From positions 19,385 to 83,384 of the IMG/VR virus record IMGVR_UViG_3300007177_000352: a stretch of DNA of 64,000 bases; one strand, 5' to 3'. Below are positions 7,775 through 59,995 of this stretch, in pieces (the first letter of the stretch is position 1; every line of letters starts with the position of its first letter). This DNA comes from a virus (lineage: Duplodnaviria; Caudoviricetes). Both the position numbers and the translations under genes were made by a program. The notes beneath the pieces are model-generated. The model ran no database searches and was not told where the DNA came from. It saw only the letters and a list, made by a program, of their open reading frames with translations.

Positions 7775-7841
7775 AGAATTACAGAGCATGGTTAACGTTT
7801 GTATGCAGTACAAACTGAGTATATTTCTTGAACGTGTTGAT

Positions 7842-8108: not shown

Positions 8109-8109
8109 A

Positions 8110-18049: not shown

Positions 18050-18089
18050 ATCAATAATAGTAAAAATTACCTCACCTATAAACCATCTT

Positions 18090-36524: not shown

Positions 36525-36610
36525 AAATTTTCGCCTGGCAATCTTTACTAAAACCGTATTTTTGAGAAATATTGAAACCAAGTTTCCGAGAAACTTGGTT
36601 TTCTTGATTA

Positions 36611-36890: not shown

Positions 36891-39800
36891 TTACTTACGA
36901 ATCTGCACTGGTCCTGCAGTTTGTTTAATCGCTCTCGTAATGGGTTGTCCTACCGTAATCTCTAAATTATTAACAGCACCTACAACCTGCTGCCGTTGTT
37001 GTTCTAGTAGTCTATTATTATAGCGGACTTCTTCAATCAAAGTCAATAACAACTCCTCCATGCGTTTGCTATCACCACCTCTACTTGTTTGTGAAGCCTC
37101 GTTGACATTGACACGAATGCCATAGTTTCTGAGGATTTCAGAAGATTGTGGGTCAACAATAATCTCCTTTTGGTGAATTTTCGCCGTCATATCCGCCGGG
37201 ACAGAAGGTGTCCCTACGTCATAACTGGGCAAATTTTCACCATCATCACTCATGTTGACATCACTCGTGTTGATACCTACAGGCGGTGCTTCTATGGAAA
37301 CAACACTGGAAGTCTTTGCCATGGAAGCGGCAGAGGACAAAACTTCACTAGCGATTGAACCAAATGATTCTGCAATACTAGGAACAACATTCTGAATGGT
37401 TTCCAGTATTTCGGCATGATAAGTGGCAGCCAGTTGTTGGTCAGCAATCCGGCGGACGATAAAATCATTTTCCGCTTGTTTTTCCTTTTCATCCTGTGCT
37501 TTTTTCAGATTTATCGCTTCCAGCTTTTCATCGCCAATTCTCTTTAAATCCTCCTCCCGCCATGTTGCTAGAGTTATGTCACGTATTGTCTCGCGCATAT
37601 CTCTGTTTGCAGCGGCCATTAAATCCTCCTCACGCCACACCGTATGCCTGGCCAAATCCTCCTCACGCCACACCGTATGCCTGGCCAAATCCTCCTCCCG
37701 CCATGTTAAGAGTCTAGCCACTTCATCCTCTGCCGCTTTTCTATCCGTCGCCCGCCATGCTAAGAGTCTTTCTTTTTCCTGGGCACGTAATTTTTCTGTC
37801 GCTTCCTTGTCCGCCGTCCGTAATTTCTCGTTCAGTGCCCCTTCTTTATCCCATCGGCCTTTCCAAAAATTTTGCCACTCACTGGAAAGGTTAGTCAGTT
37901 TGATTATAATATCCTTGGCCCCACTAGATGACACATTAGAGATTGACAATGAATTTGCCCCACCTCCTGCTTGCAACACATCAGCCTTCCCCATGTCACC
38001 AGCTTTTTGCTGTGGTGACAACTGCGACATAAGACCTGGGCCTTGACTAACTCCACTCGTGACAGGAGACGCCGCTGGTAGGTAGCTAAACAAGCTAGGC
38101 ATTTCTTTAGTCTCCCTAGACAGGCCGCCTGTTAATTTCCCGAAGTCCAGTTTAGGTAACTCAGTTTTTGTAGTCGCCAGTTTGCTATTGAGGCCATCTA
38201 ATTCACCTTTGAGAGAAGACACACCAATAAGACTCTTACGCAACTCCTCTAAGGAGGCTTTAGCATTTTGAAAGTCGGCGTAGGTGTCTATTTTAATATC
38301 TACTCCCTTTGTTTGCATCATAGACAAAGTATTGCGTTTATCCAATGCAGTATAAACCTCCGACTCGCTACGGCCTTGATTAATTGTGGCGCCTTTTAGC
38401 TGTTTAAGAGATTCACCCAGTCCATTGACTATCAAACTAAGTTCACGATATTTAGCAAGGTCTTCTGCCGGCTTGGTCCCTTGTTGCGATTGAAAAGCAG
38501 TTAGTAATTCCTTATTCGTCTGCAAATAACCATCCTTAAATTGCGGCCAGAAACTCGCCCAGTCGGTGTCCTTACGATTCACTAATATTTGACTAACAAG
38601 ATTAGATATGGATTGCGAAAAATCCTCCTTAACACCCATATCTTGCATCATCTTAGTAATGCCGGCCATATCCACTGACCCACTATATTGCCCGGACTTA
38701 TCACGCGCACTGGTAACATAACCACCGACTTTGGTGATAAACTCATCAAAGGAGGTAGTTAGGTTAGCTTTGGTAGCTATCTCTCTGTATTGTGAAAATG
38801 CAGTGAGTGCATTGTCAATAGCGGTTTGATTATCTTTAAAACCACCTTCTTTTTTAGTTACCTCCTTTTTAATATTTTCACCCTTGACAGCACCAATCAA
38901 CTCATACAACGGTCCCGTGATATTGCGTTGCATAGCCTCGTCAAGTCTTTCTGCAACGATTAACTGATTCTCCGGTGACAACTGACTCATTAAGGCGTCA
39001 ATATTCGTCTTTAGACTACTCTTTAACCCGGCATCCATAGCAATGACATAATTGCCCAATTGCACAAGTTGACCCACCGACGCTTGTTGTAAAGCCGTGA
39101 CGTTATTAGCAAAGTCAGTGTCATCAAAGGTCTTTTCGCTGGCCGCTTGCAACTGAGATTCAATACCACCGAGGCTGGTATTGAGTGATTGTAACTCAGC
39201 CTTAGCCAACTCCCGTAGCTTATTGCCTTCCGCTTCGGTATTTGCCTTGTTATCTGCTATCGCTTTTTCAGTGTCGGCCTTGGTACTCTCAATGAGTTTA
39301 TCCGTGTCTGCTTTAGTATTCTCAATGAGTTTATCCGTGTCCGTCTTTTGCGTTTCAATAAGGTTAGTAAAATTCTCCTTTTCCTTTTCTATCATTGCAC
39401 TGAATTGGTCATCTGGCATGGGGGTCGCCGCCGGACTGGTCAACTGAGTCGCAATATCTAGGCCCATAGAAGTGAGTAAGCTATTGACGCCTTGCAATTT
39501 CTCCATAGCCGCTTGCTGTAGCGGAAGGAGGTTAGCTATGTTTTTAGCCGTCTCAGTCTTATCTAAAGGGAGTTCCTTAGCTATCTTATCCGCTTCCGCT
39601 TCTGCAACACCTTTGAGGTCACTGATATTGCTATTCACATCATTAAAGATGTTAGTGTAATCCTCACTGGACGCATAATAACCTTGTGCCTCTTTGAGAT
39701 AACCTTGTGCCTTGGCCGTGACTTGACCCATAGCCTCCACGTCCCCCGATTTAGCTAATCGTAAGGTCTCCTCATACTGACGCCGTGCCTCTGTTAATCG

Positions 39801-42800
39801 TTGCGTTGGATTATATGTGGTCAACTCGCCCAATTTAAGGTCGTCTAAGAAGCCTTTTAGTTGTTTAGAGAAGTCTATCAACTTATTATAGTGGTCAAGC
39901 TGTTTCGCTTCAGCCTCCTTTTGCTTCTCGAACCGTTGATTCTCAAGGTCAATTTGTTCTTGCAATGACTCCAAAATGAGACCTTTATAGGTCTCCAATT
40001 TCTTGACACTTTCCTCCGTGACTGGCATATTGCTACTTATTGAACCTTGCATAGCATTCAACTTCTCAATAGCCGTGGTGCCGGGCAAAGACATATCCTT
40101 TGCCAATTTTTCCATATCAGATTTCACGGCGTCCTGTAAAGAAGCCACCGCGTCCTTAACCTTGGTTAAAGTCTCCTGTAACTTCTTAGCCGCCTCTTGA
40201 ATCTTCTCAAGGTGCTTGATTTTAGTATCGCGTTCCGTTTCCAGAGACTTGATAACGTCGTCCCGTGCCTTTTCAGCAGCCTTAATTTTCTCGTCCCGTT
40301 CCTTTTCCAGTCGCTTGATAGTCTCATCTTGAGTCTTTTCTAGTTGTTTAGTGACGGCCTCATTGGCTTTATCAAGGTCGGCCAATTGTTCTCGCAGTGC
40401 CTCCCCAATTCCTTTTCTATACTCTTCACCTAACTTAACGAGCTTCTCCCCGTCTGCTATGGCTTGCTTGTTATTCTCTTGACCTTGCTTCAAGATAGCA
40501 ATATTAGCTTCACTGATAGCTAATAGGGACTGACTTGATTGTTGCAACGCGCTGGCCGACACACCTTGCAATTGCGTGGTGTCTATTTCAGCTACCTTGC
40601 CTATTGCAGTGCGTGACCCGGTATCTTTAGCCATAGAGGACTGGAAGGTTGCAATGGCATTGGCAAACTCACCACTGGTTTTTTCCTTTAAGGCAGTCTT
40701 CTTACCTCCCTTGCCTAATTCAGCATCCAGGGCCGTAATATCGTCTGCAATAGAATTCATTATTCCAGTAACACTCTCTTTAAGTTTCGTAAAGCCTGCG
40801 ATAATCTCATCGTGAGTCTTTAACACCGCGTCCTTTTCTTTCGTCACGGCATCTATTCTGAACTTAGACTCCTCCATAAGAAGTTTACGATATTTCTCTA
40901 TATTAGCAATCGCCTTTTCAGATTCTTTCGCACTGTCTTTATCAATCTCTTTGGCCAGGTCAATACCTTTGAAGTCATTAAGACTCTTTTGCAAAGATTG
41001 CATTTGCGCATTGCGCCGGGCGGCGACGGCATTCTCATCTTGAGTATCAAATGACTGAATATCAGAAGCTATGGATTCAGAAACAGCACCGAGTTTGTCT
41101 GCTAATTTACCAAAGACATCAAAGAATTTATCCACCTGCTTCATGAGGTCGGCTTGTACCTTTTCCGCTTCCTGTTTCGCCTTTTCCGCGGCCTCGTCAG
41201 CTTGCTTTTGCGCTTCCTCCTGGGCCTTCTTTTGTTCCTCCTCAATACTACTTTCCCTAGCCTTCATAGCCTCCACATAAGACTTGGAGTTATTGATAAA
41301 CTCGTCCACTGATAGCCCAGCTTGTTTTGCCATAGCTTCCAACTGGTCGGCATTCATTCTGGATAACGACCCTGCGACAGCTTGTGAAGTGGACCCTAGG
41401 CCACCTAGCTTGCTTGTGAGATTAGGCACCGTCTTAGACAGGTTAGAGAGTGTGTAATCATAGTCAGTCATTGATGACGCCATTTTATCCATTTCACCGC
41501 GGAATCCGTTTAAAGAATCCGTAATCGCTTTAGCCTCCTCTGCCATGCTTTGTAAAGCCGACACATAACCACCGATGTCACTAACAAAGTCGTCAGTGGA
41601 CACACCTAACGATTTGGCCATTTCAACAACCCGCGCCGGGTCCATAGATGCAAATTGAGAAGCAACCTCCTCGGCAGTTTTACCTGACAGACCCATCGAA
41701 CTGATTAGGTTAGGATACTTGCTACCAAGTTGATTGACGGTATATTCAGAATCTTTCATACCACTGGTGAGCTTCTTAAAGCCGTCTTGCATCCCTTGTA
41801 CAGACTGAATAGCGGCCTTGGTCTCCGCTTCTTGAGAAGCCAGTGTATTGATATACGTAGTAGCATTCTCTAAGAACTGGTCGGTGGTGACCTTGCTTGT
41901 TTTAGCCAACTCCTCTAATTTTGCATCATCTAAAGAGGCTAGTTGATTAGCTACGTCTTTAGAATTAGTCCCCAGTCCTTTTAAACTGTCAATCAGTGAC
42001 GGGAACTTAGAAGTCAGGTTATTCAGTGTCAACTCACTTTCAGATAGCGTGCCACCTAACTTGGTCATCTCAGTTCTAAAAGAGGATAACTGTTCGGCTT
42101 TAGCTTTGGTCTCCTCCGCTTGTGCAGTCAGGACGCCGGTATACGCCTCCACATCACCCATGAATGCTTCTACACTCACGCCTAACGATTTGGCCATATC
42201 TGCAATTTGCTGACTACTCATAGAATCAAATTGTTTCGCTACATCCTGCGCAGTCACGCCAGCCTTAAAGAGTGTGTCACTGAGACTTGGGTATTGTTTC
42301 TTAAGACGTTCCAACGTCGCTTCATTATCAGTCATACCAGTCGCCATTTGGTGCATCTTATCTTTGAATGAACCAATTTGACCTTGCAATTCCTTAACGG
42401 CGCCTAGATAAGCAAGAGTGGCTTCTTTAGCCTCCTCTGGTGCTATCTTATTAGCTTCGGCCCAGGCAAGCATATCGTTATCCGTCATTCCTTGAATAGC
42501 GGTAGCGGCTTCCGTCACATTGAGTCCTAAAGCATTCGTTGCTAGGTTTAAGTCAGGATACTTTTTAGCTAAATCATCTATCGTCTTTTCAGCACCTTGT
42601 AACGGATTGATAAGCTCTGCTAAACCAGTTCGCAAATCTTTAAACACTTGACCGCTAGGGAGTGCGTTGGCAAACGCTTGTATATCCTCTTTCAACTTAT
42701 CCGTGGTCACATCTAAAGAAGCGGCCATTGACTCTAAGTCAGCTTCGGATAGATTAGCAAACTGACCCGCGGCCTGTTCGGCAGTTAGTCCACTCTTTAA

Positions 42801-51800: not shown

Positions 51801-54800
51801 ATCAGTGGTTAAACTCTTTTTCTGTGATAAGTCAAATAGCTTTTCTTTGGCGACACGCAACCTTTCTTCAGCTTCAGCTAAGGATTGTGTCGCCTCGGTT
51901 GCCGTCGCTTTGACCGAGGACGCGGTACTAGCGGCGGCTGTTTCTAAAGCACCCATGGCGCCACTACCTTGCTGTGTCATGTCGGCCACCGCGGCAGTTA
52001 ATGTCTCGCTGTTTTGTGTGACACCAGTTGCTAAAGTGGACGGGATAGATTGACCAGAAGCGGTTAAATCAGATAGGGGGCCCGTCTTCGCATCTGAAAA
52101 GGGGAGGTATTGACGGACCGAGGTTAGACCATCAGAAACAGCCGTGGTGAGTTCCTGTGCCCCTTTTTTGATACCATTGCCAACGGTGCTTAACAATTTT
52201 CGCCCAGCCTCAGTAAAGTCTATTGTGCTAAGGTATTGAAAAACTGAATCAAACACTTGCTTTACACTATCAATGAGTATTGATGGCGCACTTAAAATCC
52301 CATCTTTGATACTGGTGATGATAGCAATACCGCGGTCTGAATAAATGATACTTTCAAGGTAAGTTTTCACACTGGTAAAGAGAGTGGTCACCCCATCCAC
52401 TAAAAGGGTCGGGAGGCTTGTGATACCAGTGTAAATACTCATTATCATAGCCACTCCTCTATCAGAATAGACTAGACTTTCAAGGTAGTTATACACACCC
52501 GTAAAGATGCCCTTGACGGTATCAATTAACAGTGAGGGGAGGCTTAACACGCCGTTGACAAATGCAGTTATCAATCCCTGTCCACTGGTTGTCAATTGGG
52601 TAAAGGGACCTTCATTAGCGTCACTATGAGGGAAGAGATTCCAGACGTATTTAAACACACCCAGAACTGAGTCATAAATGGATTTGCCAATAGACACAAT
52701 CCCTTCACCAAAGGCACTGAGTAGCTTCGCCCCGGCTTGATACCATGATTCAGGGAGGATGGCACTGATAGCCATTTTGGCAATCCCTAAGATTGCGTAA
52801 CCAACGTTGGAGGCAACAGACCATAGCCCTTCTACAATCCCAGTGACAATAGATAGGCCGGCCTCTCCCCAATTACCGGCGGCAATGGCGCCGGTGACAT
52901 TACCTATCGTAGTCCCTATGATTCGAGTGAGGTCGCTAAGGATGTTGGCTGGGGCCATTAGCACATCACCGAGGCCATGCCATGTCTCATTTAAAGAAGT
53001 GGCGAGTTGACCGAGACCATCTGGAATATTTTTTATAGAGGTGAGAATACTATCAGCAAAGTCAGCGAATCTGAAATTGGCAATTGCATCAATCGCGACC
53101 CCAATGGCCGAAGCTATCCCCCGACCCATTTCAACAAAGGCACCTACCACCGTGATAGCTGTTTCTTGTACGACTGTGAATTGGTTATATAGGAACGTAC
53201 CTATTTGCCAACCTATAAAGAAGGCACCCAAGGCCGCGGCCCCAGTCTTAACCACTGTGAATGCCATTCCTAAATCAAGTAACCCAGTGGATAACACCAT
53301 CATGGCACCCATTCCAACGGTTTCCAGGTTTTCTAGTGTATAAGTGATGGCATCACCAATAGGTTTAAGGAGTCCAAATTTATCTAACATTTCAGTTAAA
53401 TCTTGACTCCATTGTTCTTTGATACTGGTTAGGCTAAATGCGCTCTTTAACTGAGATTGAGTACCTTCAACATCAACCTTTGGTGTGTTTCCTAATTCAG
53501 AGGCAGAAGCATCTTGAGAAGAAAACATGCTTAAAGCGGCAGTGCCTGCGACGGCCATGCCCATCATTGCCGTCTTTTTGCCAAACATACCACTGAGTCG
53601 GCTTCCCGTGGCCGCAGTGGAGGTCGCCCCTTCGGTTCTAAACCGTGCCCAGAAATTAGCAACATGGGCTTGCGCAACAATAAATGCCCGTCCTATGAAA
53701 CCGGGGGTACTTGCAGTGGCTGCCCCACTTTGGGTTCTAAACAGTCCCCAGAATTTGGCAGTTGACGCTGACCATATAGTGGTTATCCGTTGTCCTATTG
53801 GTGACCACACTGCATACGCTTTTCCACTCAGGCTTTCAATACCATGCCAAGCGGTATTAAGGAATCGACCAGTCGCCTCAGTTGCTTTATCCCACATTTG
53901 ACCAGTTCTCACTTGTGCAAATAAACTGGCGGTACGAGTTGCAACCGTGTTACTGAAACTGACTATTTTATCTGCTATAGTGGAACTGGCGGCGGATACA
54001 TTGGTCATTGTGGTATTTAATATCGCTGGGAGAGACCTAAATCCCGCAGTCATCTTCTCACCGGCGCGGTCAAGTAAATTGACTGAATGTGCCCAAGCCG
54101 CATTGAGGGCACGACCGGCTCCATACCATCCGGCCTTGATAGTTGAAAATGTAGAGGATAAGGTACTGGAGAGCTTCTGGAAAACGTTTTTTATCTCACC
54201 GGCTTGTTTAACCGCTTCCTCTTTAAGTTGTTTGAATCTCTCTGTCTCTTTCCCAGAACTGCCCTCTACAAACCTTGATGTCCCCTCTCGTTGTGCCATT
54301 TCCATAGCACGATTTATTACAGCCCCCTGATTCTTATTAATGGTCCCATTCTGGTTACGTTCTAAGGTCGCACCAGAACCAACCCACTTGGCCTTTTCCA
54401 TATAAGCGCCAGCGGCATTGCTTAATTCTTTATACTTGGTTTTTATTTTACCCAGTGAATCTGACAAACTAAACAAACTATTAGATACCTTGGTGGCTAT
54501 TAAGGAACTGGTAGCTGACAATTTAGTCATCGCGGTATTTAAGGTTGCCGGGAGAGTTCTAAACGCCACGGTCATTCGTTCCGCCATTCGGTCAAATAAA
54601 TTTATAGAATGCGCCCACGTTGCATTCAACGCACGACCTAACCCGAATGTACCAGCCTTAATGAATGACCAAGTATTAGTCCAACCTGTTTTAAGAAATG
54701 ACCAAGCAGAAGCCCACGCCGCTTTAAAAGTTTTTACAGGTTCAGTAGCAAAAACAGCCAGCTTTTGCCAAATTGTACGAGTGGCGACCGCTTGCTTTGC

Positions 54801-57800
54801 CGCTTCTTCTTTCACTCGTTTATATGCTTCAGTTTCTCTTTTTTCCCATGCACCTGTCTTCCTGTTATATACCTCTTCCTCTTTCAAACTGTCGCCATAT
54901 TGCCGTTTCCACATCTCGTCGGCACGGTCCAATACGGGTCTGTTGCGTTTATCTGATGTCCATTGCCCTTCTTTAATAAACGCCCGTTGTTTGGGGTCAG
55001 TAAAGGCGGAACCAGTCCATTTGGCATCGGCTACATATTTTTTGGCCGCTTGACTCATCCGAGAGAAAGCCCCAGTGGCCGAGGACGCGAGATTAGAAAA
55101 TGCGACTATACCTGTAGCGGCAGCAAATTTAAGAGTATTACCTATACCTGCTAAGACTCCTGTTACAGACAACCAGGACCGACGACTACTTTCAGCCGCG
55201 GTTTTATTGGCAGTGGCGGCAGTGGTAGCGTTACCAGTTATTTGTTCTTGACAACTTAACTTATCACAAGCCAGCTTCAAGAAATCCATTTTACCAGGAG
55301 GAGGTAACTTCCCTTTCGGAGGAGTTACATCGCATTGGGCAAATGGATTGACGCACTGTCCTTTCTTACTAGAGGCAATCAATTCAAATCCCTTTTGACC
55401 TTGAATAATCCGTCTCTTCACTTCCTTTTCACTGGGTAACAAGCAAGCCATTAACGGGTTGTTGATACACTCTTTAGCCTTGGCCCCAGCTTTAGCACGG
55501 AGGGACATCGCTGAGTATATTTTCTGGATTGCAACACCCATTGCCAAAGCCGCAGTTCCACCGAATATTGCGATAGAAGTGCCCCACTCACTTATCATAA
55601 AACCAAAGAAGTCTTTCAATTGGTCTTTATAAGCCCCTACCGCACCAATTATCCCACCGATGGCCCCCATCGCCACGGCTGGCAAACTGATAAAACCTGT
55701 CGCAACTAATGTGATAGCAGCCGTTATCCCTGCTAGCCCCATGATGATTTTTTTCGTGGTGGAGTCCAACCCAGCCCAGAAATTACTAACAGATTCTTTG
55801 GCACTGAGAAACGCCGCTTTAATCTCCGTTCGGAAGACCACTGCCGTGGAAACTAAACTGGCAAATACCGCTAGTAATGGATTAGCACCTAATACCACTG
55901 ACAGAACCCCGGAGGCAATAGAAGCAATCGCTATTCTGAAACTTTTGGCATTCTCTGTTACTTCAGAAAACGGAATTTGTTGAAGGAGTAACTCAAAAAT
56001 GGAGACCGAAGCAACTCCTGCTTTTAGGGTCGCAGGCAGTGGAAGTAAGAATAACATTGCCGACTGGACAATTGACCCCATGGCGCTGACGTGAGTACCA
56101 CTGGCATCTAGTGTGGCCTGAAATTCATCAATGTTCTTCTTAATATAAGCAAAAGTGTCACCGATGGTTGATTTAATGAAATTATAGGTGATGCCGATTT
56201 GGTCAGAAAACATTTCAATTGCAATGACCGTCTTGGCGATGATACTCACAACCAACAATCCAAACTTCATAGCCGGATTAAAATTCACCACGGCGGCCCC
56301 TAATTCCTTTATGACTCCCAGTGCCCTCATAGGTCCCTTCATAGCCTTGATTGCGGCAATAAGGGAGGCAACGATGATGCCGGCATTTTTGAACATGTTC
56401 TGCTGATTGTCTGCCAACCCACCCCACCATTCTTTGAGTGTAGAGACGGTGTCGGCAGTGTATTGCATCATTTGTCCAATAAACGTCCCTTTATAGTCTT
56501 GGGCCATCTGATTCCAGTTTTTAATAAAGGAATCCCTTAACGATGTGGCTAAAATAAGAAAATTACTTTTAGCCCCACTGAAGTCCAAAGTCATTATACT
56601 TTTGACCACAGCCATAAACTCGGTGTGGAAGCTGGATAAAATAGAAATAACCAGTCCCAGGGCCGTGAGAGATTTAAAGGCATTGGCAAGTCCTGCGACA
56701 GAAGTGATAGCACCAGCCGCAAGTTTTCCGATATTTAAGACGGAGGTGGTGAAAATTGAGAGGGAGGTAATCATTTGGCCGGTTGAACCAAAGATTTGAA
56801 ACACCGTTTTGGTCAACCGCAAGGTAGTAAAGAATGCCGAAAATCCCTTTCCTAAGATTTTAAAAAATTCACTCACTGTCTTAACAATCACTGAAAAAAT
56901 CGAGAGTGTTCCACCCGCACTTGTTTTCGCTACCCCTGCCGTCTTCACCACTTCAGCACTCATGGAAACCATCGAACTGCTTGCAGTCGTGGTTAACATG
57001 ATAATAGAGGGAGAGACGACACTCATAATCTGCTTGACGGAGATAATTCCACCCACAATCGAACCGATGGAACCCAGAATAGATAACATTGAGTCGCCAC
57101 TCACTTTCTTGATTGCACTCATTACCCATTCACTGGCCCCAGCCATCCCATTCCCCAGAGACTGCATCATAGAGAACCCCACTTCCCCAAAAGTGACTAC
57201 AGACCCCTTGATAACTTCATATACTTCACTAAAGACGATTAACACTGACTCAGTTAACCACCCCGCTTTACTCAATAAGGCTTCCCCAAAGGTCGTCAAT
57301 AAAGATTCCCCGCTTTGTGTCAACTGACTAAACGGACCCTCTTTTGCATCTGAATGGGGGAAGAGGTTAGCAACCCAACTGAAGACACTTAAAACTGCAT
57401 TGTATAATGTTTTTCCAGCAGATATAACACCTTCGGACAAGGTTTTGATAATTCTGTCACCTTGCCCACTGGCAAATGCGTTAGCTAATCCTATTGCTAT
57501 ACCAGCACTTAGACCAATGAAAAGCGTTGGTAATGACGCTGTCACTGCGGCACCTAGACCAAGGAAGATTTTACTTAATTTGACAATCATGTCACCAGTA
57601 TCAGCCGCAGTCTTTTTATAGCTTACGTTAAACCCAGAGACTCTACCAATCGTTATTAATATCACCTCCGATAAAAGACGTAGCGGGGCTAACAATGGGA
57701 TGTTTCTGGTTAGCACATTAGTAATTGTGGCCAACGCTGGAATTAGAACTAAACCAATTCCAGGAGGAATCTCTTTAAATACCCCTAAGACTGAATCGAC

Positions 57801-59921
57801 TAGGAATTTGCCACTGGCTATAACACCAGAAGCCATCGTAGTGATGATGGATTGACCGCTTTGTGATAAAGTGCTAAACGGACCTTCTTCCGCATTTGAG
57901 TGGGGAAACAAACGACCAGCTAAATCAAAGAATCCTAAAATTGAATCATAGATAGTTTGTCCGGCTGATTTAATACCACCGACGAAAGTAGTCACCAGTG
58001 CCTGACCAGAGGAGGATAAATCTATGGTAAAGAGGCTTGTTAATTGTTGAATACCATCAAACTTAAAACCGCTAAAACTATTCGCTAGTTGCTTCCCGAA
58101 GGTAATGACGCCCGTGGTTAAATTGGCAATCCCTGTGACGACTGTATTAATCACTGGTGAAATTAAAACCAGACCTTGGATAAGCGGAACTACTCCAACC
58201 GAGATGACCTTTCCTAACGTCACAGCCAGTGCATAAGCGACTCCCTTTATCATTTCAAAAGTTTCAACACTTTCTTGACCGCTACTTGACACTGACCCCC
58301 ATTCTTGACTCAGTTCCTTAAAAGCATCACCTATAGGAGAGAGTGCGTCAAATAAGCTGGTCAAGGCTATTTCAATAGGTTCTATGCCTGCTAAAAAGCC
58401 TTCTTTAAATGCAGAAAGAGTTGGCATTATCGCCTGCACTGCTAATATGATAGATTGCAGAGACTGCGTTCCAAATTGCACTATCGGGCGTAGCATGGGG
58501 CCAACCATATCAAAAACAGATAAGGCTAGTTCCTCTAGGTTGCCCGTGAATTGATTCCAGTCTCCTTTGAGGTTAGCTAACATTTTAGCTGAAGTGGTTT
58601 GCGCAAAACCTTCGCTATCAGTAACGGTTTTTCTAAACTCTTTGAATGCAGTGGTGGTGATGGTCACCGCTTTACCATTCTCTATAATCGTTTTATTAAA
58701 TTCCTTAGACTGGGAAATTAACTCTAACATTGCAGAGGATGCCTCCGTGCCAAACACCGTCTTTACAGTATCCAATTTGTCTGCATCAGTCATATTTGCA
58801 GTGGCTTTATTGAAGTCAATTAGAATGTCTCCAAAATCCTTAATTTTGCCTTTGCTATCAGATATGTTGATACCCAACTTCTTCATTGCATTACCGGCCT
58901 CATCAAGCGCCTGCATGGCCTCGGATTCTGTCATTGCCTTCCCAGTTTCCGTACTTAGGTTGGCCATTTCTTCAGCGGCTTTATTCGTGGGTGCGGCCAG
59001 TCGAAGCATAGCCATTCTCAATGAGGTACCGCTTTGGCTACCGTGAATTGAAATATTTGCTAATAAGGAGGTGGCCGCTGTTAGAGTTTGGATAGATTGA
59101 TTGGCCGTGGCAAAAATCGGGGCGCTATATTTCATGCTTTCCCCTAATTCAGCTACCCCGACATTACTTGCATTCGCCGCTTTTGAAAAGAGGTCGGCAA
59201 CCATCGTGGATTGCTTTGTTTCCAATTTGAACGCACGTAATTGTTCGGCAGCAATTGAACTGGCAGTGGCTAAACTTTCACCACTGGAAGCCGCTAAATT
59301 TAAGACGCCTGGTAGGGCGGCCATAGTCTCAGAGGTAGTGAAGCCCGCCCGCGCTAAATTTAAGCCGGCATCACCCACTTCGGAGGCACTGAATACAGAC
59401 GCTTTAGCTAACTCACGCATGGCAGTGCCCAATCCCTTTAACTCAGTATCTGTCGCATCTGAAACGGCCCCAATAGTGGACATTTTGGCCTCAAAATCCG
59501 CACCTATGGTCACCATTTGTTTCATTGGCGTTAAGACGTTACTCGTCATTGACGCCACGCTTTGAAGGTTAAACGAGAACTGGCCGACGGACGTGACTAG
59601 ACTAGATAAATTGGTTTTAGCAGACTGAGTTAAATCTTTAAAATGGGCCTTGGTTGCAGAAATACTTTGAGAGGCTTGCTGCTGTAAATTCTTAAATACA
59701 TTGGATTGCTTCTTTAACTCCTCACCAAATTCTTTATTTGATTTAACGGCATCTTTAGCACCATTTACCATGCTAATTGAGGACGCGACGGCACGAGTGG
59801 CTGTATCCTTTAAGGATTCAGACATTTGTCTAAAAGATTTTATTATCTCTTGATTGCCGTGGATTGCATCGTTTGTGTCCGCTTGAAAACGGATTCCAAC
59901 TACCATCGTGCCTGCGCTCAT
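36891..59921 (-). CDS. Giant tape measure protein (7,676 aa) with TP901-type core, SLT and NlpC/P60 domains
   Basis: TP901 core at about 58530-59510, four 'P.S.A..GP...L..SG' motifs, 'P..RL.EAR.QY....A..GD' motif, C-terminal 'SYDVGT..VP.DM.A.IH..E.I', followed by minor tail genes. Confidence 0.93.
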   Translation of the reverse strand: MSAGTMVVGIRFQADTNDAIHGNQEIIKSFRQMSESLKDTATRAVASSISMVNGAKDAVKSNKEFGEELKKQSNVFKNLQQQASQSISATKAHFKDLTQSAKTNLSSLVTSVGQFSFNLQSVASMTSNVLTPMKQMVTIGADFEAKMSTIGAVSDATDTELKGLGTAMRELAKASVFSASEVGDAGLNLARAGFTTSETMAALPGVLNLAASSGESLATASSIAAEQLRAFKLETKQSTMVADLFSKAANASNVGVAELGESMKYSAPIFATANQSIQTLTAATSLLANISIHGSQSGTSLRMAMLRLAAPTNKAAEEMANLSTETGKAMTESEAMQALDEAGNAMKKLGINISDSKGKIKDFGDILIDFNKATANMTDADKLDTVKTVFGTEASSAMLELISQSKEFNKTIIENGKAVTITTTAFKEFRKTVTDSEGFAQTTSAKMLANLKGDWNQFTGNLEELALSVFDMVGPMLRPIVQFGTQSLQSIILAVQAIMPTLSAFKEGFLAGIEPIEIALTSLFDALSPIGDAFKELSQEWGSVSSSGQESVETFEMIKGVAYALAVTLGKVISVGVVPLIQGLVLISPVINTVVTGIANLTTGVITFGKQLANSFSGFKFDGIQQLTSLFTIDLSSSGQALVTTFVGGIKSAGQTIYDSILGFFDLAGRLFPHSNAEEGPFSTLSQSGQSIITTMASGVIASGKFLVDSVLGVFKEIPPGIGLVLIPALATITNVLTRNIPLLAPLRLLSEVILITIGRVSGFNVSYKKTAADTGDMIVKLSKIFLGLGAAVTASLPTLFIGLSAGIAIGLANAFASGQGDRIIKTLSEGVISAGKTLYNAVLSVFSWVANLFPHSDAKEGPFSQLTQSGESLLTTFGEALLSKAGWLTESVLIVFSEVYEVIKGSVVTFGEVGFSMMQSLGNGMAGASEWVMSAIKKVSGDSMLSILGSIGSIVGGIISVKQIMSVVSPSIIMLTTTASSSMVSMSAEVVKTAGVAKTSAGGTLSIFSVIVKTVSEFFKILGKGFSAFFTTLRLTKTVFQIFGSTGQMITSLSIFTTSVLNIGKLAAGAITSVAGLANAFKSLTALGLVISILSSFHTEFMAVVKSIMTLDFSGAKSNFLILATSLRDSFIKNWNQMAQDYKGTFIGQMMQYTADTVSTLKEWWGGLADNQQNMFKNAGIIVASLIAAIKAMKGPMRALGVIKELGAAVVNFNPAMKFGLLVVSIIAKTVIAIEMFSDQIGITYNFIKSTIGDTFAYIKKNIDEFQATLDASGTHVSAMGSIVQSAMLFLLPLPATLKAGVASVSIFELLLQQIPFSEVTENAKSFRIAIASIASGVLSVVLGANPLLAVFASLVSTAVVFRTEIKAAFLSAKESVSNFWAGLDSTTKKIIMGLAGITAAITLVATGFISLPAVAMGAIGGIIGAVGAYKDQLKDFFGFMISEWGTSIAIFGGTAALAMGVAIQKIYSAMSLRAKAGAKAKECINNPLMACLLPSEKEVKRRIIQGQKGFELIASSKKGQCVNPFAQCDVTPPKGKLPPPGKMDFLKLACDKLSCQEQITGNATTAATANKTAAESSRRSWLSVTGVLAGIGNTLKFAAATGIVAFSNLASSATGAFSRMSQAAKKYVADAKWTGSAFTDPKQRAFIKEGQWTSDKRNRPVLDRADEMWKRQYGDSLKEEEVYNRKTGAWEKRETEAYKRVKEEAAKQAVATRTIWQKLAVFATEPVKTFKAAWASAWSFLKTGWTNTWSFIKAGTFGLGRALNATWAHSINLFDRMAERMTVAFRTLPATLNTAMTKLSATSSLIATKVSNSLFSLSDSLGKIKTKYKELSNAAGAYMEKAKWVGSGATLERNQNGTINKNQGAVINRAMEMAQREGTSRFVEGSSGKETERFKQLKEEAVKQAGEIKNVFQKLSSTLSSTFSTIKAGWYGAGRALNAAWAHSVNLLDRAGEKMTAGFRSLPAILNTTMTNVSAASSTIADKIVSFSNTVATRTASLFAQVRTGQMWDKATEATGRFLNTAWHGIESLSGKAYAVWSPIGQRITTIWSASTAKFWGLFRTQSGAATASTPGFIGRAFIVAQAHVANFWARFRTEGATSTAATGSRLSGMFGKKTAMMGMAVAGTAALSMFSSQDASASELGNTPKVDVEGTQSQLKSAFSLTSIKEQWSQDLTEMLDKFGLLKPIGDAITYTLENLETVGMGAMMVLSTGLLDLGMAFTVVKTGAAALGAFFIGWQIGTFLYNQFTVVQETAITVVGAFVEMGRGIASAIGVAIDAIANFRFADFADSILTSIKNIPDGLGQLATSLNETWHGLGDVLMAPANILSDLTRIIGTTIGNVTGAIAAGNWGEAGLSIVTGIVEGLWSVASNVGYAILGIAKMAISAILPESWYQAGAKLLSAFGEGIVSIGKSIYDSVLGVFKYVWNLFPHSDANEGPFTQLTTSGQGLITAFVNGVLSLPSLLIDTVKGIFTGVYNYLESLVYSDRGVAMIMSIYTGITSLPTLLVDGVTTLFTSVKTYLESIIYSDRGIAIITSIKDGILSAPSILIDSVKQVFDSVFQYLSTIDFTEAGRKLLSTVGNGIKKGAQELTTAVSDGLTSVRQYLPFSDAKTGPLSDLTASGQSIPSTLATGVTQNSETLTAAVADMTQQGSGAMGALETAAASTASSVKATATEATQSLAEAEERLRVAKEKLFDLSQKKSLTTDSTVKKNISHQEVGVRQEVHDAQEVVRQLRESAKEQTAIQRAAAKESEKAAKEANKAIKESAKEAARDMKASLYDQADALTNVSKQYKEAAKATEEFADKLKRTYESLSYARNELVTSNMNEMQKNVFQNVGDYGTDYGPQIAQVKMLTSANQELTSAKNELAKAGMSESQARLFDLQQKYTENVALEIYQTQELAKTKKALYEESQKSRESQLVGDQKEYVDLMKQVGVEEGKRIILQRQALSNQAKLKQESASYWDSMSEKAGEYYEKFATGQMSAKQSLKGFFSSVLEEQKKAALEKSKQAFLGLFGLGKDKGQQDSQVQRDLDKAAQFMKQSNDGVVAAGKDMSGTIAKAVEDAGKNLSTSVDNLGKQVNETLQKAADLTAKSDSLEKAASQLKEMASDISITRAGNNALTSQNEVGKAGENLSQALDKTGDGVTKTTGEIVSANQKYVKVTNEVASALEGASKKFNYSLLELSRMASLESSFNANVKNSSGYMGLMQFKGAASKEVGISGREYDPRAAAEGAIKYWEINQKTLDKVSKGWRETAEKMNINDGLMAWMAHNQGAGGLGQVLKTLTTGVDHLSKTVTGNIRNNLVGGEGKNLSGVALAQKYMEGWIGKWNKLPLPEQFKSQFQNAVGQGVVTVAAKASEEAGKSVAKGLGEVAKPSAAGNTGGLGRGVAINDSTLDVLSDTTNKYIQKGVSYELGAKNIELGKIDCSGWVNLLTKTAFEKINQQAGQVVFDKSDMKLLQDSSHNIIQNIVDKTGVLIDSRKTDNFGSQLKEGMMIGLDKGDHGWDRGRVRAGSDIDKNIDHIVQVTVDKVTGKLGISESRSVRQGGVQKGGVTWTELDTWLNKNKNATMFATDPFKLAAKDVQVALGGVSKSATAATQLQTQANQDQSQAVQLRLKNEQEATNMTAALVAAKKTEQTALSELTTAATQQKQTELVSTQSYEQAMQAVQAMRISTAGTDVAALSQHAQATETANLAIQDSTGQAVQEVAKVASEVGAEMANTAGQCLAEVANNPAIQNAADLKEATEVMTENCQGKSDGIMGMFSGLTDKIGGFFSGISGKLSGLFGGGGDGGFLSKITGGISSLFNGGGDGGFMSTITKGIGSLFSGGGDGIMSTITSGIGKLFGGGGGSILSSLGSLFGGGQSGKGSILSTIGGMLGGGGSGGGIGNFISGLSGSLGNLSGGLGGVGKAISGLIGSSGAGGGLGSLVGSLGSAKGALGGLLGGGGSTPGMGALSVGLSMLKGDMAGAATGAAQLLGSMTPLGPIGGMIAGKLMSMSGIGAKFVRTAEWINVSMKGLDATYSKSFTETRKGGWLVKSKTRTGTEALDEGTIKKLNDMLGESKKTIEKVSETLNLGNNDLLKGMGNFRYNIQAMENKDQEWFDKSFQTMRTTMVKSAVDNIMLAGADIKTNLGGNFQRNFKQVLDGTFNQAARAETWDGVLTSFVSSADKAMKGGLQDEVSAKLGERLTDFVNNSADQLKDLPVDQLQNVLTGEIGKIFTDVTGIAIPESITGELAEVFASRIQDAIKLSSGEEISSDVPVIKTDEIGFYRSLKEMVNAFDGPEEELNNLINQMLGLKEVFKSAGLSTTVMSKGLIDSLGGVDKFSSSMTFFKDNFASVSGTNIEFTNSLSGLNKSLKEIQGSTLPGINTAFPTTREEFYKLTQSVAKLGKDGEETFAALIKGAPQFANYYKAIEDFNQKFGGASGTTLKAQAKKAVDLNKTLNDSFKGLGIELPKTRKGLYDLVQGFDLTNESQRKLHDKILELAPAFDELFTNNEQVDKFRESMRGVYDSAGGAEKTISDLSKQFPELNLGASAMTLNTKEAARSLANMSDGELMAWAESMGLTGLSIEDITQKTTDYLTAATELQTNIGSFKDEMHKIATGATDNEAALSKLVDKYPMLSDSLTQAGVTATEVAGYFDQMSPDQLKALADSLGVTVDTLMADTQTYIGILQSQSDMFKSINGESLGGDLMKVMTDANVTSANEAGRMFADNFVSQFESQMVSTVLNSVMQTIYQGVVEPFLTSSAQAAMNITEGGAMAGTNLTQGGAIAGSNLAEGSGMAGANLVQGSTSAATTSATGGQMAASAMATGGMLAGDALAKIVEDAKQKIMVMGQVMTELKSSGVMDQITSSLSTVGETAYNTFSTAAPTLFEPARQKQESETSKTEEASNKEAEKVAEKQREEERQQIEESQKAAEDAQKAAEEARKTFTDFNKSLGDLSSGLEGNAKTINDLKTTYKDATVTQLLATSSSKDMITQLQGLSQTQLEGIAKAAGVEVSKLTGDLLSLVDITKQSEKAMGDFRNKMAITAGTTTEYEQTIAKLQSEYPKLTSTLNSQGLSSKELAKQLSTMDDEQIKSMAASLGVTTDQFMTDSDSYIGALKSQEEALKSQADNLKSFRDSLEEIANPNNQGKQKTINVLDKEFAGLGLAAHAMTLDTQAAAKAMLSMPDDQLIAFAEQYGLTTDQLKEKTTAYFGAVNELQQGMDSWRGKMNQMVSGESEATTNIKSLSQKSPYLTEMTQGMDSKAMAKFFSGLDNTQIEALANQYGVSIEKFEADTESWVNNTKTIEEEAKNLAQGFIDFRTKMGQIATGTSDAQVSLSKLSNTYGDFSDVQGKSSKELATYFSTLSDADITSLAVRFGVTTDQFKADAETFVSSTQSMEDVTKSQAASMKEFRDSLVLMSGAMTDNELSLKNLSDKYPSLSGILNDSSMTAKEAAERFNSLSDDELRNLATLLGTDFDTLKADAGTWLGILKQQDDGLKESTKAISDFQNEMRKTAGAANDSQITLEGLTAKYPALATAINDSSMTAKEAATQFASMDMQSLMNELGILPAMQAEFIADSQAWVGVLAANDEAIKANQEAMAGYRDTMLKATGTYGDSDIALKNLTASYPTLASTLNSTSLSAKDAATYFGQLSDAEFEELAKSLDVTTDKLRTDSTEWVNMIAANQESFNSFHETMVKLKGGVTDNDLTLQKLASQYPSLSSQILKSGLTAEQAAGQFANLSEADLESMAASLDVTTDKLKEDIQAFANALPSGQVFKDLRTGLAELINPLQGAEKTIDDLAKKYPDLNLATNALGLNVTEAATAIQGMTDNDMLAWAEANKIAPEEAKEATLAYLGAVKELQGQIGSFKDKMHQMATGMTDNEATLERLKKQYPSLSDTLFKAGVTAQDVAKQFDSMSSQQIADMAKSLGVSVEAFMGDVEAYTGVLTAQAEETKAKAEQLSSFRTEMTKLGGTLSESELTLNNLTSKFPSLIDSLKGLGTNSKDVANQLASLDDAKLEELAKTSKVTTDQFLENATTYINTLASQEAETKAAIQSVQGMQDGFKKLTSGMKDSEYTVNQLGSKYPNLISSMGLSGKTAEEVASQFASMDPARVVEMAKSLGVSTDDFVSDIGGYVSALQSMAEEAKAITDSLNGFRGEMDKMASSMTDYDYTLSNLSKTVPNLTSKLGGLGSTSQAVAGSLSRMNADQLEAMAKQAGLSVDEFINNSKSYVEAMKARESSIEEEQKKAQEEAQKQADEAAEKAKQEAEKVQADLMKQVDKFFDVFGKLADKLGAVSESIASDIQSFDTQDENAVAARRNAQMQSLQKSLNDFKGIDLAKEIDKDSAKESEKAIANIEKYRKLLMEESKFRIDAVTKEKDAVLKTHDEIIAGFTKLKESVTGIMNSIADDITALDAELGKGGKKTALKEKTSGEFANAIATFQSSMAKDTGSRTAIGKVAEIDTTQLQGVSASALQQSSQSLLAISEANIAILKQGQENNKQAIADGEKLVKLGEEYRKGIGEALREQLADLDKANEAVTKQLEKTQDETIKRLEKERDEKIKAAEKARDDVIKSLETERDTKIKHLEKIQEAAKKLQETLTKVKDAVASLQDAVKSDMEKLAKDMSLPGTTAIEKLNAMQGSISSNMPVTEESVKKLETYKGLILESLQEQIDLENQRFEKQKEAEAKQLDHYNKLIDFSKQLKGFLDDLKLGELTTYNPTQRLTEARRQYEETLRLAKSGDVEAMGQVTAKAQGYLKEAQGYYASSEDYTNIFNDVNSNISDLKGVAEAEADKIAKELPLDKTETAKNIANLLPLQQAAMEKLQGVNSLLTSMGLDIATQLTSPAATPMPDDQFSAMIEKEKENFTNLIETQKTDTDKLIENTKADTDKLIESTKADTEKAIADNKANTEAEGNKLRELAKAELQSLNTSLGGIESQLQAASEKTFDDTDFANNVTALQQASVGQLVQLGNYVIAMDAGLKSSLKTNIDALMSQLSPENQLIVAERLDEAMQRNITGPLYELIGAVKGENIKKEVTKKEGGFKDNQTAIDNALTAFSQYREIATKANLTTSFDEFITKVGGYVTSARDKSGQYSGSVDMAGITKMMQDMGVKEDFSQSISNLVSQILVNRKDTDWASFWPQFKDGYLQTNKELLTAFQSQQGTKPAEDLAKYRELSLIVNGLGESLKQLKGATINQGRSESEVYTALDKRNTLSMMQTKGVDIKIDTYADFQNAKASLEELRKSLIGVSSLKGELDGLNSKLATTKTELPKLDFGKLTGGLSRETKEMPSLFSYLPAASPVTSGVSQGPGLMSQLSPQQKAGDMGKADVLQAGGGANSLSISNVSSSGAKDIIIKLTNLSSEWQNFWKGRWDKEGALNEKLRTADKEATEKLRAQEKERLLAWRATDRKAAEDEVARLLTWREEDLARHTVWREEDLARHTVWREEDLMAAANRDMRETIRDITLATWREEDLKRIGDEKLEAINLKKAQDEKEKQAENDFIVRRIADQQLAATYHAEILETIQNVVPSIAESFGSIASEVLSSAASMAKTSSVVSIEAPPVGINTSDVNMSDDGENLPSYDVGTPSVPADMTAKIHQKEIIVDPQSSEILRNYGIRVNVNEASQTSRGGDSKRMEELLLTLIEEVRYNNRLLEQQRQQVVGAVNNLEITVGQPITRAIKQTAGPVQIRK
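37621..37703 (-). repeat. 33-bp coding tandem repeat (LARHTVWREED)
   Basis: Two perfect units plus a partial third, with no spacers. Confidence 0.9.
41250..46430 (-). repeat. 16 degenerate ~90-96-aa repeats in the tape measure protein
   Basis: Recurrent pattern F+..M......D....L..L...YP.L...L......A.E.A..F..M...QL..LA.SLGV..D.F..D...Y. Confidence 0.85.
49200..49720 (-). other. NlpC/P60-like peptidase domain within the tape measure protein
   Basis: 'Y.LG......IDCSGWV' followed by 'DHIV.V'. Confidence 0.7.
49920..50410 (-). other. SLT / lytic transglycosylase-like domain within the tape measure protein
   Basis: 'ASLESSFN...N..GYMGLMQF' and 'AHNQG.GG'. Confidence 0.78.
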
Positions 59922-59995
59922 AAATTTATACCAATCAAAGTTAAGGAATTAAGAATTGTAGATGTCCCTTTCAAAGTGTCTAGGTCTTTTTAAAA

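Follow-up and report, generated by a model that had tools for sequence, protein, structure and literature searches.

The giant tape measure proteins (TMPs) of the Thermus phages P23-45 (gp96) and P74-26 are 5,002 aa long and belong to virions whose tails measure between 800 nm and nearly 1 µm; the pairing published for P23-45 is 5,002 aa with a tail of 800 nm (10.1101/2022.12.01.518664). Shorter systems supply further calibrations, including TP901-1 with a TMP of 937 aa and a tail of 118 nm (PMC5099701), the Rhodobacter siphophage RcZahn with 1,678 aa and 297 nm (PMC8601537), and Gordonia phages in which a TMP gene of 9,984 bp accompanies a tail of ~540 nm (PMC4982279). In TP901-1, deletions in the repeat and hydrophobic regions of the TMP alike shorten the tail, and do so linearly, and an aromatic periodicity of 11 residues has been described in the same protein (PMC5099701). 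Lysins of the SLT kind are known inside TMPs (PMC1796659, PMC10194240). A 2026 survey covers 45,500 TMPs from IMG/VR, and its text states no maximum length. Tests of the ruler rule reach as far as 5,002 residues, about 0.9 µm.

The virus record considered here (IMGVR_UViG_3300007177_000352) is a linear metagenomic contig of 83,384 bp with an estimated completeness of 91%, and the window that was analysed is a stretch of 64,000 nucleotides within it. The single uninterrupted 23-kb open reading frame described in the first-pass annotation is indeed present, and runs on the minus strand from an ATG through 7,676 codons with no internal stop (Table 1). The gene accounts for 27.6% of the record, and its product has a mass of 820 kDa and a pI of 5.3. 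At a GC content of 44% the probability of such a frame is about (61/64)^7676, so that it cannot be due to chance. A second phage, with a circular genome of 81.2 kb (146-bp end overlap), encodes an orthologue of 7,052 aa (P0002) that is collinear over ~5,900 aa at 57-58% identity, and shorter orthologues of 5,389 and 4,350 aa lie on other long viral contigs. More than half of the k-mers of the gene are present in each of 20 sequencing runs from 9 studies, with no RNA dataset among the runs matched. Phages with this giant TMP occur in freshwater, wastewater and soil metagenomes, with genomes of ~81-90 kb.

P23-45, P74-26 and the present phage all combine a giant TMP, bearing hydrophobic and peptidoglycan-degrading parts, with a siphovirus-type genome of ~80-84 kb and an extremely long tail, the last being predicted in the present case. 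Beyond the general TMP type, however, there is no detectable sequence relationship, and the protein described here is 53% longer. It contains a 94-aa repeat in 16 copies that the Thermus proteins do not have, and an SLT lysin domain where those proteins carry a metallopeptidase. The DxDxD polymerase signature of P23-45 gp96 is absent; no D.D.D motif occurs in the protein and no polymerase family was found in Pfam and PHROG scans of all segments. The habitats also differ, apparently freshwater, wastewater and soil here as opposed to hot springs.

Table 1. Features of the TMP gene and of the associated tail genes (window coordinates; aa numbering refers to the 7,676-aa TMP).
Feature	Position	Strand	Evidence
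Whole TMP gene	36891..59921	-	7,676 codons + stop; orthologue P0002 (7,044/7,052 aa) collinear, 57-58% identity
TP901-type TMP N-terminal domain, aa ~24-630	58032..59852	-	PF10145, phrog_1533, tblastn
Hydrophobic Gly/Ala-rich variable region, aa ~631-2650	51972..58031	-	Composition, TM-like segments, PHROG matches
Charged, probably coiled-coil segment, aa ~2651-3160	50442..51971	-	25-36% charged residues, 0-1% Pro
SLT lytic transglycosylase domain, aa 3171-3282	50076..50411	-	PF01464 E 1e-7, 32 bits vs cut-off 21.3
Unclassified, most-conserved domain, aa 3395-3580	49182..49739	-	82-89% identity to P0002
Glycine-rich segment, aa ~3786-4000	47922..48566	-	34-37% Gly; short GGGDGGF..S.IT.GI.SLF repeats
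94-aa repeat units 1-2, aa 4499-4685	45867..46427	-	Local HMM, E 5e-28 and 2e-36
94-aa repeat units 3-16, aa 4931-6233, head to tail	41223..45131	-	HMM, alignment
Charged helical C-terminal region, aa 6234-7560	37242..41222	-	TMP-like motif, 33-nt tandem repeats
Conserved C-terminal end, aa 7561-7676	36894..37241	-	40% identity to end of relative P0015
602-aa distal tail protein, second gene downstream of TMP	34773..36581	-	phrog_8917 E 1e-56
291-aa protein, TMP operon	33896..34771	-	phrog_8610
274-aa tail collar fibre protein, last gene of TMP operon	33059..33883	-	PF07484 E 8e-26, many tail-fibre PHROGs
Tail terminator	4411..5211	+	PF23840 E 1e-11
Putative 497-aa major tail (tube) protein, non-contractile type	5230..6723	+	Between terminator and chaperone; atlas
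Candidate tail assembly chaperone pair: 117 aa (DUF1799) + overlapping 116-aa ORF	7421..8108	+	PF08809 E 3e-6
Divergent intergenic region upstream of TMP	59922..60437		Promoter-like site, repeated GACCTA(T/G)AC-like motifs

The assignment to TMPs of the TP901-1/PF10145 type is based on homology. PF10145 matches aa 167-391 (E 8e-35; 120.9 bits, cut-off 33.2), phrog_1533 matches aa 24-601 (E 8e-70) along with more than 15 further TMP PHROGs, and in tblastn the N-terminal domain aligns over ~640 aa with the TP901-1 and Tuc2009 TMPs (27-28% identity). In all, PHROG TMP families match at aa 24-1000, 2150-2650 and 6699-6773. The likeness to the TP901-1/Tuc2009 TMP (937 aa) extends beyond the homologous N-domain to the hydrophobic regions that follow and to an aromatic periodicity of 11 residues near the C-terminal part (PMC5099701), seen here as WREEDLARHTV repeats with Trp at every eleventh residue (window 37621-37719) that appear in the DNA as 33-nt tandem repeats. 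It differs in being eightfold longer, in the addition of lysin domains, a glycine-rich segment and the 94-aa repeats, and in having chaperone genes that are not adjacent. The first-pass annotation had placed TMP hallmarks at both ends, which holds for the N-terminus but not for the last 400 aa, where neither Pfam nor PHROG families match; the nearest C-terminal TMP-like match is the motif at aa 6699-6773 (phrog_16823, E 5e-11; window 39603-39827). Other segments, among them the last 130 and the last 400 aa, gave nothing in the Pfam, PHROG and PDB scans. The C-terminal end is itself conserved (~115 aa across four family members, with invariant columns from 7565 to 7675) and, from the genetics of TP901-1 (PMC5099701), is presumed to anchor the protein to the tail-tip complex.

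The hydrophobic region of ~2,000 aa, judged by comparison among relatives, is hypervariable: ~1,700 aa of it are absent from the relative P0014, and the block at 55218-57859 is swapped for 2,799 diverged nt in a wastewater strain (run X1). Four motifs of the FPHSDAxEGPF type occur in the region, as do internal duplications. At its distal end, 500 aa look like the C-terminal half of a TMP of the ordinary kind, with matches at aa 2150-2650 to phrog_58, phrog_5493, phrog_1272 and phrog_1535, and 13 TM-like segments fall at aa 560-2510. Proline makes up 1.7% of the protein as a whole. In the charged segment that follows (aa ~2651-3160), coiled-coil-type Pfam rows are weak and sub-threshold.

The predicted SLT lysin domain is intact, belonging to the family and retaining the catalytic Glu-Ser pair (E3190-S3191), and the GLMQ and AHNQG motifs are also present; all are invariant in four relatives. 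Its identity to P0002 is 87%, and there is a weak hit to the corresponding SLT portion of PDB entry 9b45, 'gp41 tape measure protein'. In the domain at aa 3395-3580, a DCSG motif (C3425) and three histidines (H3462, H3501 and H3520) are invariant; there is no match to it by sequence in Pfam or the PDB, the atlas gives only a lead of 0.78 to an NLPC_P60 cluster, and from the motif it is possibly a peptidase like NlpC/P60. A peptidoglycan hydrolase inside the ruler protein is shared with the TMPs of mycobacteriophage TM4 and of enterococcal phages (PMC1796659, PMC10194240), but in contrast to those proteins the SLT domain is followed here by the second, unclassified Cys/His domain, and both lie ~3,200 residues from either end.

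The 94-aa helical repeat is present in 16 copies, likewise in 16 copies in P0002, in 12 copies in the relative of 5,389 aa and in 2 copies in that of 4,350 aa. Units within the protein are 24-41% identical to each other, compared with 70-84% to their orthologous units in P0002. The occurrence of 16 repeats in both phages, despite a difference at 42% of residues, is expected if length is under selection. An AlphaFold2 (AF2) model confined to two units (pLDDT 74) is all-helical, with four short helices and one of ~40 residues per unit, and places ~55 residues of each unit in a small helical bundle. Comparison of this two-repeat model with the PDB by Foldseek and with VIA-align wide yielded generic helical matches (E >= 2; Z <= 5.7), and no fold has therefore been assigned to the repeat. 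Nothing else in the TMP is as well conserved as the repeats and the enzyme domains (70-89% identity to P0002). A simple spacer would not usually be so constant, which points to roles beyond measuring.

The genes downstream of the TMP encode distal tail and fibre proteins, in the same order as in the circular 81.2-kb genome, where the counterpart of the 602-aa protein is 56% identical. A homologue of this protein is encoded directly after the TMP in the Microcystis siphophage vB_MaeS-yong1, and is annotated there as 'tail protein'. A long-tail gene set is also present, comprising matches to PF23840, PF05069 and PF08809 in addition to the tube protein. The 497-aa protein is assigned as a siphovirus-type tube protein indirectly. 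The PF18906 model matched neither this protein nor anything in a six-frame search of both genomes, while the atlas links it to PF18906 tube-protein clusters (score 0.96) and a relative, P0008 (72% identity), carries PF18906; its C-terminal half is homologous to RcZahn gp25 (E 2e-10), whose gene occupies the equivalent position. An hhalign comparison of its N- and C-terminal halves revealed no duplication of the P74-26 type. RcZahn has a non-contractile tail seen by EM (PMC8601537), a property that is predicted here from genes; a six-frame search of both genomes with PF04984, one sheath family, found nothing. No obvious slippery site was seen in the overlap of the candidate chaperone ORFs.

Gene order is a point of departure from RcZahn, which has the succession tube, chaperone, TMP and minor tail proteins and a TMP 4.6 times shorter. 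The TMP operon lies at least 24 kb from the tube and chaperone genes and on the other strand; from the TMP gene itself the tube and DUF1799 chaperone genes (5230-8108) are at least 29 kb away. In the circular 81.2-kb genome the distance is ~32 kb, on the same strand. Chaperone and tube genes do not immediately precede the TMP gene here, and the upstream neighbour is a divergent ParB-CE gene. Chaperone and tube before TMP is the usual arrangement and no strict requirement. No Shine-Dalgarno motif was found before the TMP ATG. The homology of the protein, the distal tail genes downstream of it, the tube, terminator and chaperone genes and the conserved orthologues agree with the initial identification of this gene as encoding the giant TMP of a long-tailed phage.

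The reading that we favour, at a probability of roughly 65%, is that this is a real TMP of an uncultured siphovirus-like phage in which the whole chain serves as the ruler of a long tail. Speaking against it are the separation of the gene from those of the chaperone and tube, the lack of a TMP family match in the last 400 aa, the AF2 helical bundles in the repeats and the indirect assignment of the tube protein. By analogy with characterised TMPs we infer the topology and stoichiometry as follows. While the tail is being assembled, several TMP copies probably occupy the lumen of its tube, with the TP901-type N-domain at the head-proximal end and the C-terminal end seated in a tip complex built from the products of the downstream genes, and the 497-aa protein would polymerise until the end of the TMP is reached. 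A chain of 7,676 residues, probably helical for the most part, would set a tail length of some 0.9-1.3 µm, with several hundred nm as the least to be expected. Upon infection the TMP would be expelled, the SLT domain, and probably the Cys/His peptidase, would cut peptidoglycan, and the hydrophobic region with its 13 TM-like segments may form a membrane channel for the DNA.

The four published calibrations correspond to 0.126-0.177 nm per residue, or 0.97-1.36 µm for 7,676 aa. Extrapolation from them predicts a tail of about 1 µm, equal to or longer than the longest measured so far, for a phage that is known from its genes alone. The earlier figure of ~1.1 µm falls within this range and is likewise an extrapolation. 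Globular inserts, as the first pass cautioned, would lower the estimate: with a predicted bundle in each of the 16 repeats and ~500 residues of lysin and glycine-rich sequence, the true tail length could be lower.

An alternative that we consider unlikely, although worth keeping in view, is that the protein is a real TMP of which much is compactly folded or is cargo (the 'heads' of the repeats, the lysins and the stretch rich in glycine), that the tail measures roughly 0.35-0.7 µm, and that the extra mass acts after ejection in wall degradation, as a channel or envelope-spanning conduit, and possibly in DNA handling. The AF2 architecture of the two units is consistent with such compaction, as are the conservation of the repeats between orthologues, which exceeds the protein average, and the HTH-, Rho_N- and SAP-like Pfam rows within the 94-aa units, all weak and sub-threshold. 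The P23-45 TMP provides a precedent in carrying a folded enzyme, a virion RNA polymerase (10.1101/2022.12.01.518664). A volume estimate in which three chains fill a lumen of ~4 nm to ~70% would give ~0.045 nm per residue, or ~0.35 µm, and the 1.8-fold spread in TMP length among close relatives whose tube proteins are 72-92% identical could reflect variable cargo instead of variable tails. All four measured calibrations, however, lie at 0.13-0.18 nm per residue, with P23-45 and its polymerase cargo included, and the linear shortening of the TP901-1 tail by hydrophobic and repeat deletions alike also argues against this alternative. The enzymes detected here are limited to the SLT domain and the putative peptidase, there is no DxDxD motif, and fold searches with the repeats returned no significant match.

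A fusion protein is a considerably less probable explanation. In this view only the N-terminal ~2,650 residues, which have the appearance of a whole TMP of the ordinary kind, would act as the ruler and specify a tail of ~0.35-0.45 µm. The other ~5,000 residues, on the C-terminal side, would be located either beyond the tube, forming a central tip fibre or needle, or within the capsid. The alignment of aa 2150-2650 with the C-terminal halves of ordinary TMP profiles (e.g. phrog_5493 positions 546-1025 of 1102) fits this proposal, what comes next in the chain (lysin domains and long coiled coils) is reminiscent of tail-associated lysins or fibres, and no TMP family matches the last 400 aa. Against it, a TMP-like motif recurs at aa 6699-6773, corresponding to positions 1618-1692 of 1948 in phrog_16823, and other TMP-type proteins, 3,200-4,700 aa long, combine the N-domain, SLT domain and 94-aa repeats in that order in a single chain. 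In no relative is the gene split at ~2,650, and tip and fibre genes are separate, downstream of the TMP.

That the gene is an assembly concatenation or a non-functional frame, as might be feared of a repeat-bearing protein on an incomplete linear contig, can be dismissed, given 7,676 codons without a stop, repeats of 60-88% DNA identity with no identical stretch above 33 nt and collinear assemblies from other samples, chief among them an independent 44,114-bp wastewater contig (run X1) that is ~98% identical across window 39000-58999, 20 kb of the TMP gene, and differs there by indels of 21, 33, 33 and 6 nt and by the one swapped block (length difference 159 nt), every one a multiple of three. 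The concatenation check raised in the first pass thereby excludes an artefact.

We tentatively suggest, at somewhat less than even odds, that this lineage builds the longest virus tail known, exceeding 1 µm, and that it reached this length stepwise by multiplication of the 94-aa 'bead-on-a-rod' module (2, 12 and 16 copies) and by inflation of a membrane-active hydrophobic region. The relatives with TMPs of 4,350, 5,389, 7,052 and 7,676 aa would in that case represent a natural gradation in tail length, matched to how thick the outer layers of the host are. The first-pass suggestion was that such a tail might help to cross a thick sheath or capsule. Compared with the ruler lengths tested so far, the giant-TMP family reaches half as far again, in a small, otherwise ordinary genome that is free of the polymerase cargo confounding the Thermus case. 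Since close relatives combine four ruler lengths with nearly the same tube protein, it becomes testable whether the rule holds beyond 1 µm, how a tube of ~275 rings is assembled faithfully, and what ecological problem such a tail solves. Both the 94-aa repeat and the hypervariable hydrophobic block offer new ways to study the growth of tape measures and their adaptation to the host envelope.

No tRNA was found in the phage genome, and searches for prophage relatives gave none in species genomes with the SLT region as query and none in viral contigs with the 602-aa protein. A Shine-Dalgarno motif precedes 20 of 40 phage genes and is uninformative on the host. The phage sliding clamp is 44-48% identical to the chromosomal dnaN of Thiotrichaceae and Thiomargarita MAGs and 40-46% identical to that of many other Gammaproteobacteria as well (in a sample of 300, including three unpublished genomes on which nothing here is based), which shows only that the clamp is of gammaproteobacterial type.

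Positions 36891-59921 of the minus strand of the window carry a single ORF of 7,676 codons running from ATG to TAA, in which both the ORF listing and the translation give zero internal stops, in agreement with the uninterrupted 23-kb frame reported by the first-pass annotation; an open frame of this length cannot have arisen by chance. The gene makes up 27.6% of the 83,384-bp IMG/VR record of the phage (completeness estimate 91%), of which the window represents bases 19385-83384. Its product (820 kDa, pI 5.3) contains 1.7% proline and abundant alanine, serine, leucine, glycine and threonine. The proposed identity as a tape measure protein (TMP) is well founded: PF10145 (E 8e-35) is matched within the first ~1,000 residues, as are over 15 tape-measure families of PHROG (best 8e-70), and tblastn retrieves the TMPs of TP901-1 and Tuc2009.

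Domain map of the 7,676-aa TMP
Feature	Residues (aa)	Properties
TMP N-domain	1-630	
Hydrophobic Gly/Ala-rich region	~630-2650	13 TM-like segments, four FPHSDAxEGPF-type motifs, internal duplications
Charged helical segment	~2650-3160	
SLT lytic transglycosylase	3171-3282	Pfam match and invariant motifs
Most conserved stretch	3395-3580	82-89% identity; DCSG and three His invariant
Glycine-rich segment	~3786-4000	34-37% glycine
Sixteen 94-aa repeats	4499-4685 and 4931-6233	
Charged helical region	6234-7560	WREEDLARHTV repeats, Trp at 11-residue spacing
C-terminal end	7561-7676	conserved in all four relatives

The lytic transglycosylase domain (SLT, PF01464) scores over the Pfam cut-off, its Glu-Ser, GLMQ and HNQG motifs being invariant across the family, and it is the only enzyme family that Pfam and PHROG family scans found in any segment of the TMP. 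From the DCSG/His motif we infer that the most conserved stretch is an NlpC/P60-like peptidase, a family that none of the profile searches of this stretch confirms. The 11-residue periodicity described for the TP901-1 TMP (PMC5099701) is seen here in the WREEDLARHTV repeats. The DxDxD motif of P23-45 gp96 is absent.

The units of the 94-aa repeat share only 24-41% identity with each other, compared with 70-84% to their own orthologues, and since they have diverged so far the repeat must be old. It is present in 16 copies in both giant TMPs, that of the present phage and its 7,044/7,052-aa orthologue in a second virus record (G001, IMGVR_UViG_3300035670_000127), in 12 copies in a relative with a 5,389-aa TMP, and in 2 copies in a relative with a 4,350-aa TMP. 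A profile of the repeat searched against 1.84 billion representatives matched only 58 proteins, mostly of 1,000-5,400 aa, several of which combine the TMP N-domain or PF10145 with SLT and carry 3-5 units apiece, which makes it a rare TMP module, with 16 copies the highest number seen. AF2 modelling of two units (pLDDT 74, pTM 0.49) predicts four short helices (~55 aa) and, after them, a helix of ~40 residues entering the next unit, and fold searches with this two-unit model returned no significant match.

Published ratios of tail length to TMP length are 0.126 nm per residue for TP901-1 (937 aa, 118 nm; ~0.146 per length-determining residue; PMC5099701), 0.162 for Gordonia phages (9,984-bp TMP gene, tail ~540 nm; PMC4982279), 0.160 for P23-45 (5,002 aa, 800 nm; 10.1101/2022.12.01.518664) and 0.177 for RcZahn (1,678 aa, 297 nm; PMC8601537). 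Extrapolation of these four ratios to 7,676 residues predicts a tail of 0.97-1.36 µm, a range that includes the value of about 1.1 µm first suggested. At 0.146 nm, with ~510 residues (SLT, Cys/His and glycine-rich stretches) subtracted, the estimate is about 1.05 µm, and it would fall to about 0.9 µm should the heads of the 16 repeats (~880 residues) contribute little length. A serious alternative is that much of the TMP is folded or is cargo, leaving the tail shorter than a linear rule implies, as the predicted helical bundles and strong conservation of the 94-aa repeats might suggest; compact packing could bring the length down to about 0.35 µm, the physical lower bound that we infer from our own volume estimate assuming three chains, a 4-nm lumen and 70% packing. 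All measured long tails nevertheless obey the rule, cargo-carrying P23-45 included.

A ruler confined to the first ~2,650 residues, with the remainder fused to it, is suggested by residues 2150-2650, which resemble the end of an ordinary TMP and match the distal halves of the profiles phrog_58, 5493, 1272 and 1535. This reading is weakened by the recurrence of a TMP motif at residues 6699-6773, which match phrog_16823 close to the end of that profile, by other TMPs in which an identical domain order occurs within a single chain, and by tip genes that are separate from the TMP.

An artefactual ORF, including the assembly concatenation that the first-pass annotation had allowed for, is excluded by the shortness of its DNA repeats, a collinear orthologue and an independent contig with in-frame indels. 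The longest repeat within the gene is two identical 33-nt units (TRF and repeat finder) and the repeats seen in the protein share no more than 60-88% identity in DNA, leaving nothing for an assembler to mis-join. The G001 orthologue is 57-58% identical and collinear across ~5,900 residues. Although that record (81,363 bp) is classed linear, a 146-bp direct overlap of its ends and a 602-aa tail gene that spans them show the genome to be closed circular or circularly permuted, with a length of 81,217 bp. The relative with the 5,389-aa TMP is found as ~82-kb contigs in JGI, ENA and Logan data, and that with the 4,350-aa TMP as a 71.8-kb contig. More than half of the 31-mers from a 10-kb piece of the TMP gene occur in 20 public runs from 9 studies of wastewater, freshwater, soil and sediment. 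In one run with a near-identical strain (X1), a 44,114-bp Logan contig is collinear with window 39000-58999 at about 98% identity; indels in the TMP gene are of 21, 33, 33 and 6 nt, all multiples of three, and block 55218-57859 (aa ~688-1568; 2,640 nt) is swapped for 2,799 diverged nt, a difference of 159 nt that is likewise a multiple of three. Strains thus vary in the TMP gene yet keep its frame. The replaced block falls within the hydrophobic region, the least conserved part of the TMP (9-35% identity to the orthologue, with many gaps), ~1,700 residues of which lack any equivalent in the 5,389-aa relative. The block may be a hypervariable, host-envelope-facing cassette.

The TMP gene opens a minus-strand operon, followed by a 92-aa ORF and genes for a 602-aa protein, a 291-aa protein and a 274-aa tail-collar fibre; in Microcystis siphophage vB_MaeS-yong1 the gene immediately after the TMP encodes a homologue of the 602-aa protein. 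The 92-aa ORF (window 36611-36889), a doubtful gene, begins one base past the TMP stop, has no family match and lacks a counterpart in G001, whose TMP gene is only ~130 nt away from the one that follows. Upstream lies a divergent ParB-CE gene, adjoined by a possible regulator or partition site, an intergenic stretch (window 59960-60250) with several GACCTA(T/G)AC-like motifs, including the tandem GACCTATAC GACCTATAC; a terminator-like hairpin occurs at 60348-60369. Head and proximal tail genes occupy plus-strand positions 1-12040 and encode a decoration protein, a lambda-E-type capsid protein, an adaptor, Phage_tail_S, a tail terminator (PF23840), 497-aa and 195-aa proteins, a DUF1799 chaperone with an overlapping ORF, a Mu-type portal and MuF. 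The 497-aa protein is read as the major tail (tube) protein on several grounds. Its gene sits between those for the terminator and chaperone, and no structural protein is better conserved (86% identity to G001). In the ESM atlas it falls among PF18906 tube-protein clusters with a score of 0.96, and PF18906 itself is found in a relative with 72% identity. Homology also links its C-terminal half to gp25 of Rhodobacter phage RcZahn, a protein that holds the same genome slot. RcZahn has a flexible non-contractile tail by EM (PMC8601537), and a one-family search found no sheath in the present phage or G001; the phage is therefore regarded as siphovirus-like. In the candidate chaperone pair (window 7421-8108; DUF1799 ORF and overlapping 116-aa ORF) the 17-nt overlap has no obvious slippery heptamer, and a clear chaperone frameshift is also reported lacking in RcZahn (PMC8601537). 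In both genomes the TMP/tip operon and the tube/chaperone genes lie 24-32 kb apart with replication genes between them, in differing relative orientation, and such a separation is unusual.

Tape measures are a known kind of protein, and this one presumably works by the mechanism already known. What is new is the size, 53% above the largest described TMP, the large share of a small genome devoted to it, a giant TMP without polymerase cargo, the displaced position of its gene, the 94-aa module, and a four-step series of TMP lengths among relatives.

Other genes of the phage include a DnaN-type sliding clamp (window 18021-19253; 410 aa) with all three beta-clamp Pfam domains and an apparent central-domain insertion. 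It is closest to gammaproteobacterial dnaN, best to chromosomal dnaN of Thiotrichaceae and Thiomargarita MAGs (44-48% identity), a likeness that amounts to no host assignment, as many other Gammaproteobacteria reach 40-46%. That a long tail might help to get through a thick sheath or capsule is a speculation of the first-pass annotation. Three paralogous ParB-like ORFs (19726-20517, 21279-21977 and 23253-23783), all matching one 205-aa G001 protein, are interspersed with genes for a glucosyltransferase-like protein (20498-21376, phrog_842) and a DNA methyltransferase (23780-24817) and with a 432-aa ORF, and the cluster looks like an expanded DNA-modification module. Before the window, the phage's own locus L002 has two large minus-strand ORFs (2898-6067; 386 and 628 aa) without PHROG match or G001 homologue. 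An FtsK/SpoIIIE-like ATPase (L002:12071-14122) and, in a third lineage, a radical-SAM (lysine aminomutase-like) gene and a sigma-54 activator adjoining the head module (L011:15455-17874) are unusual accessories for phages of such size.
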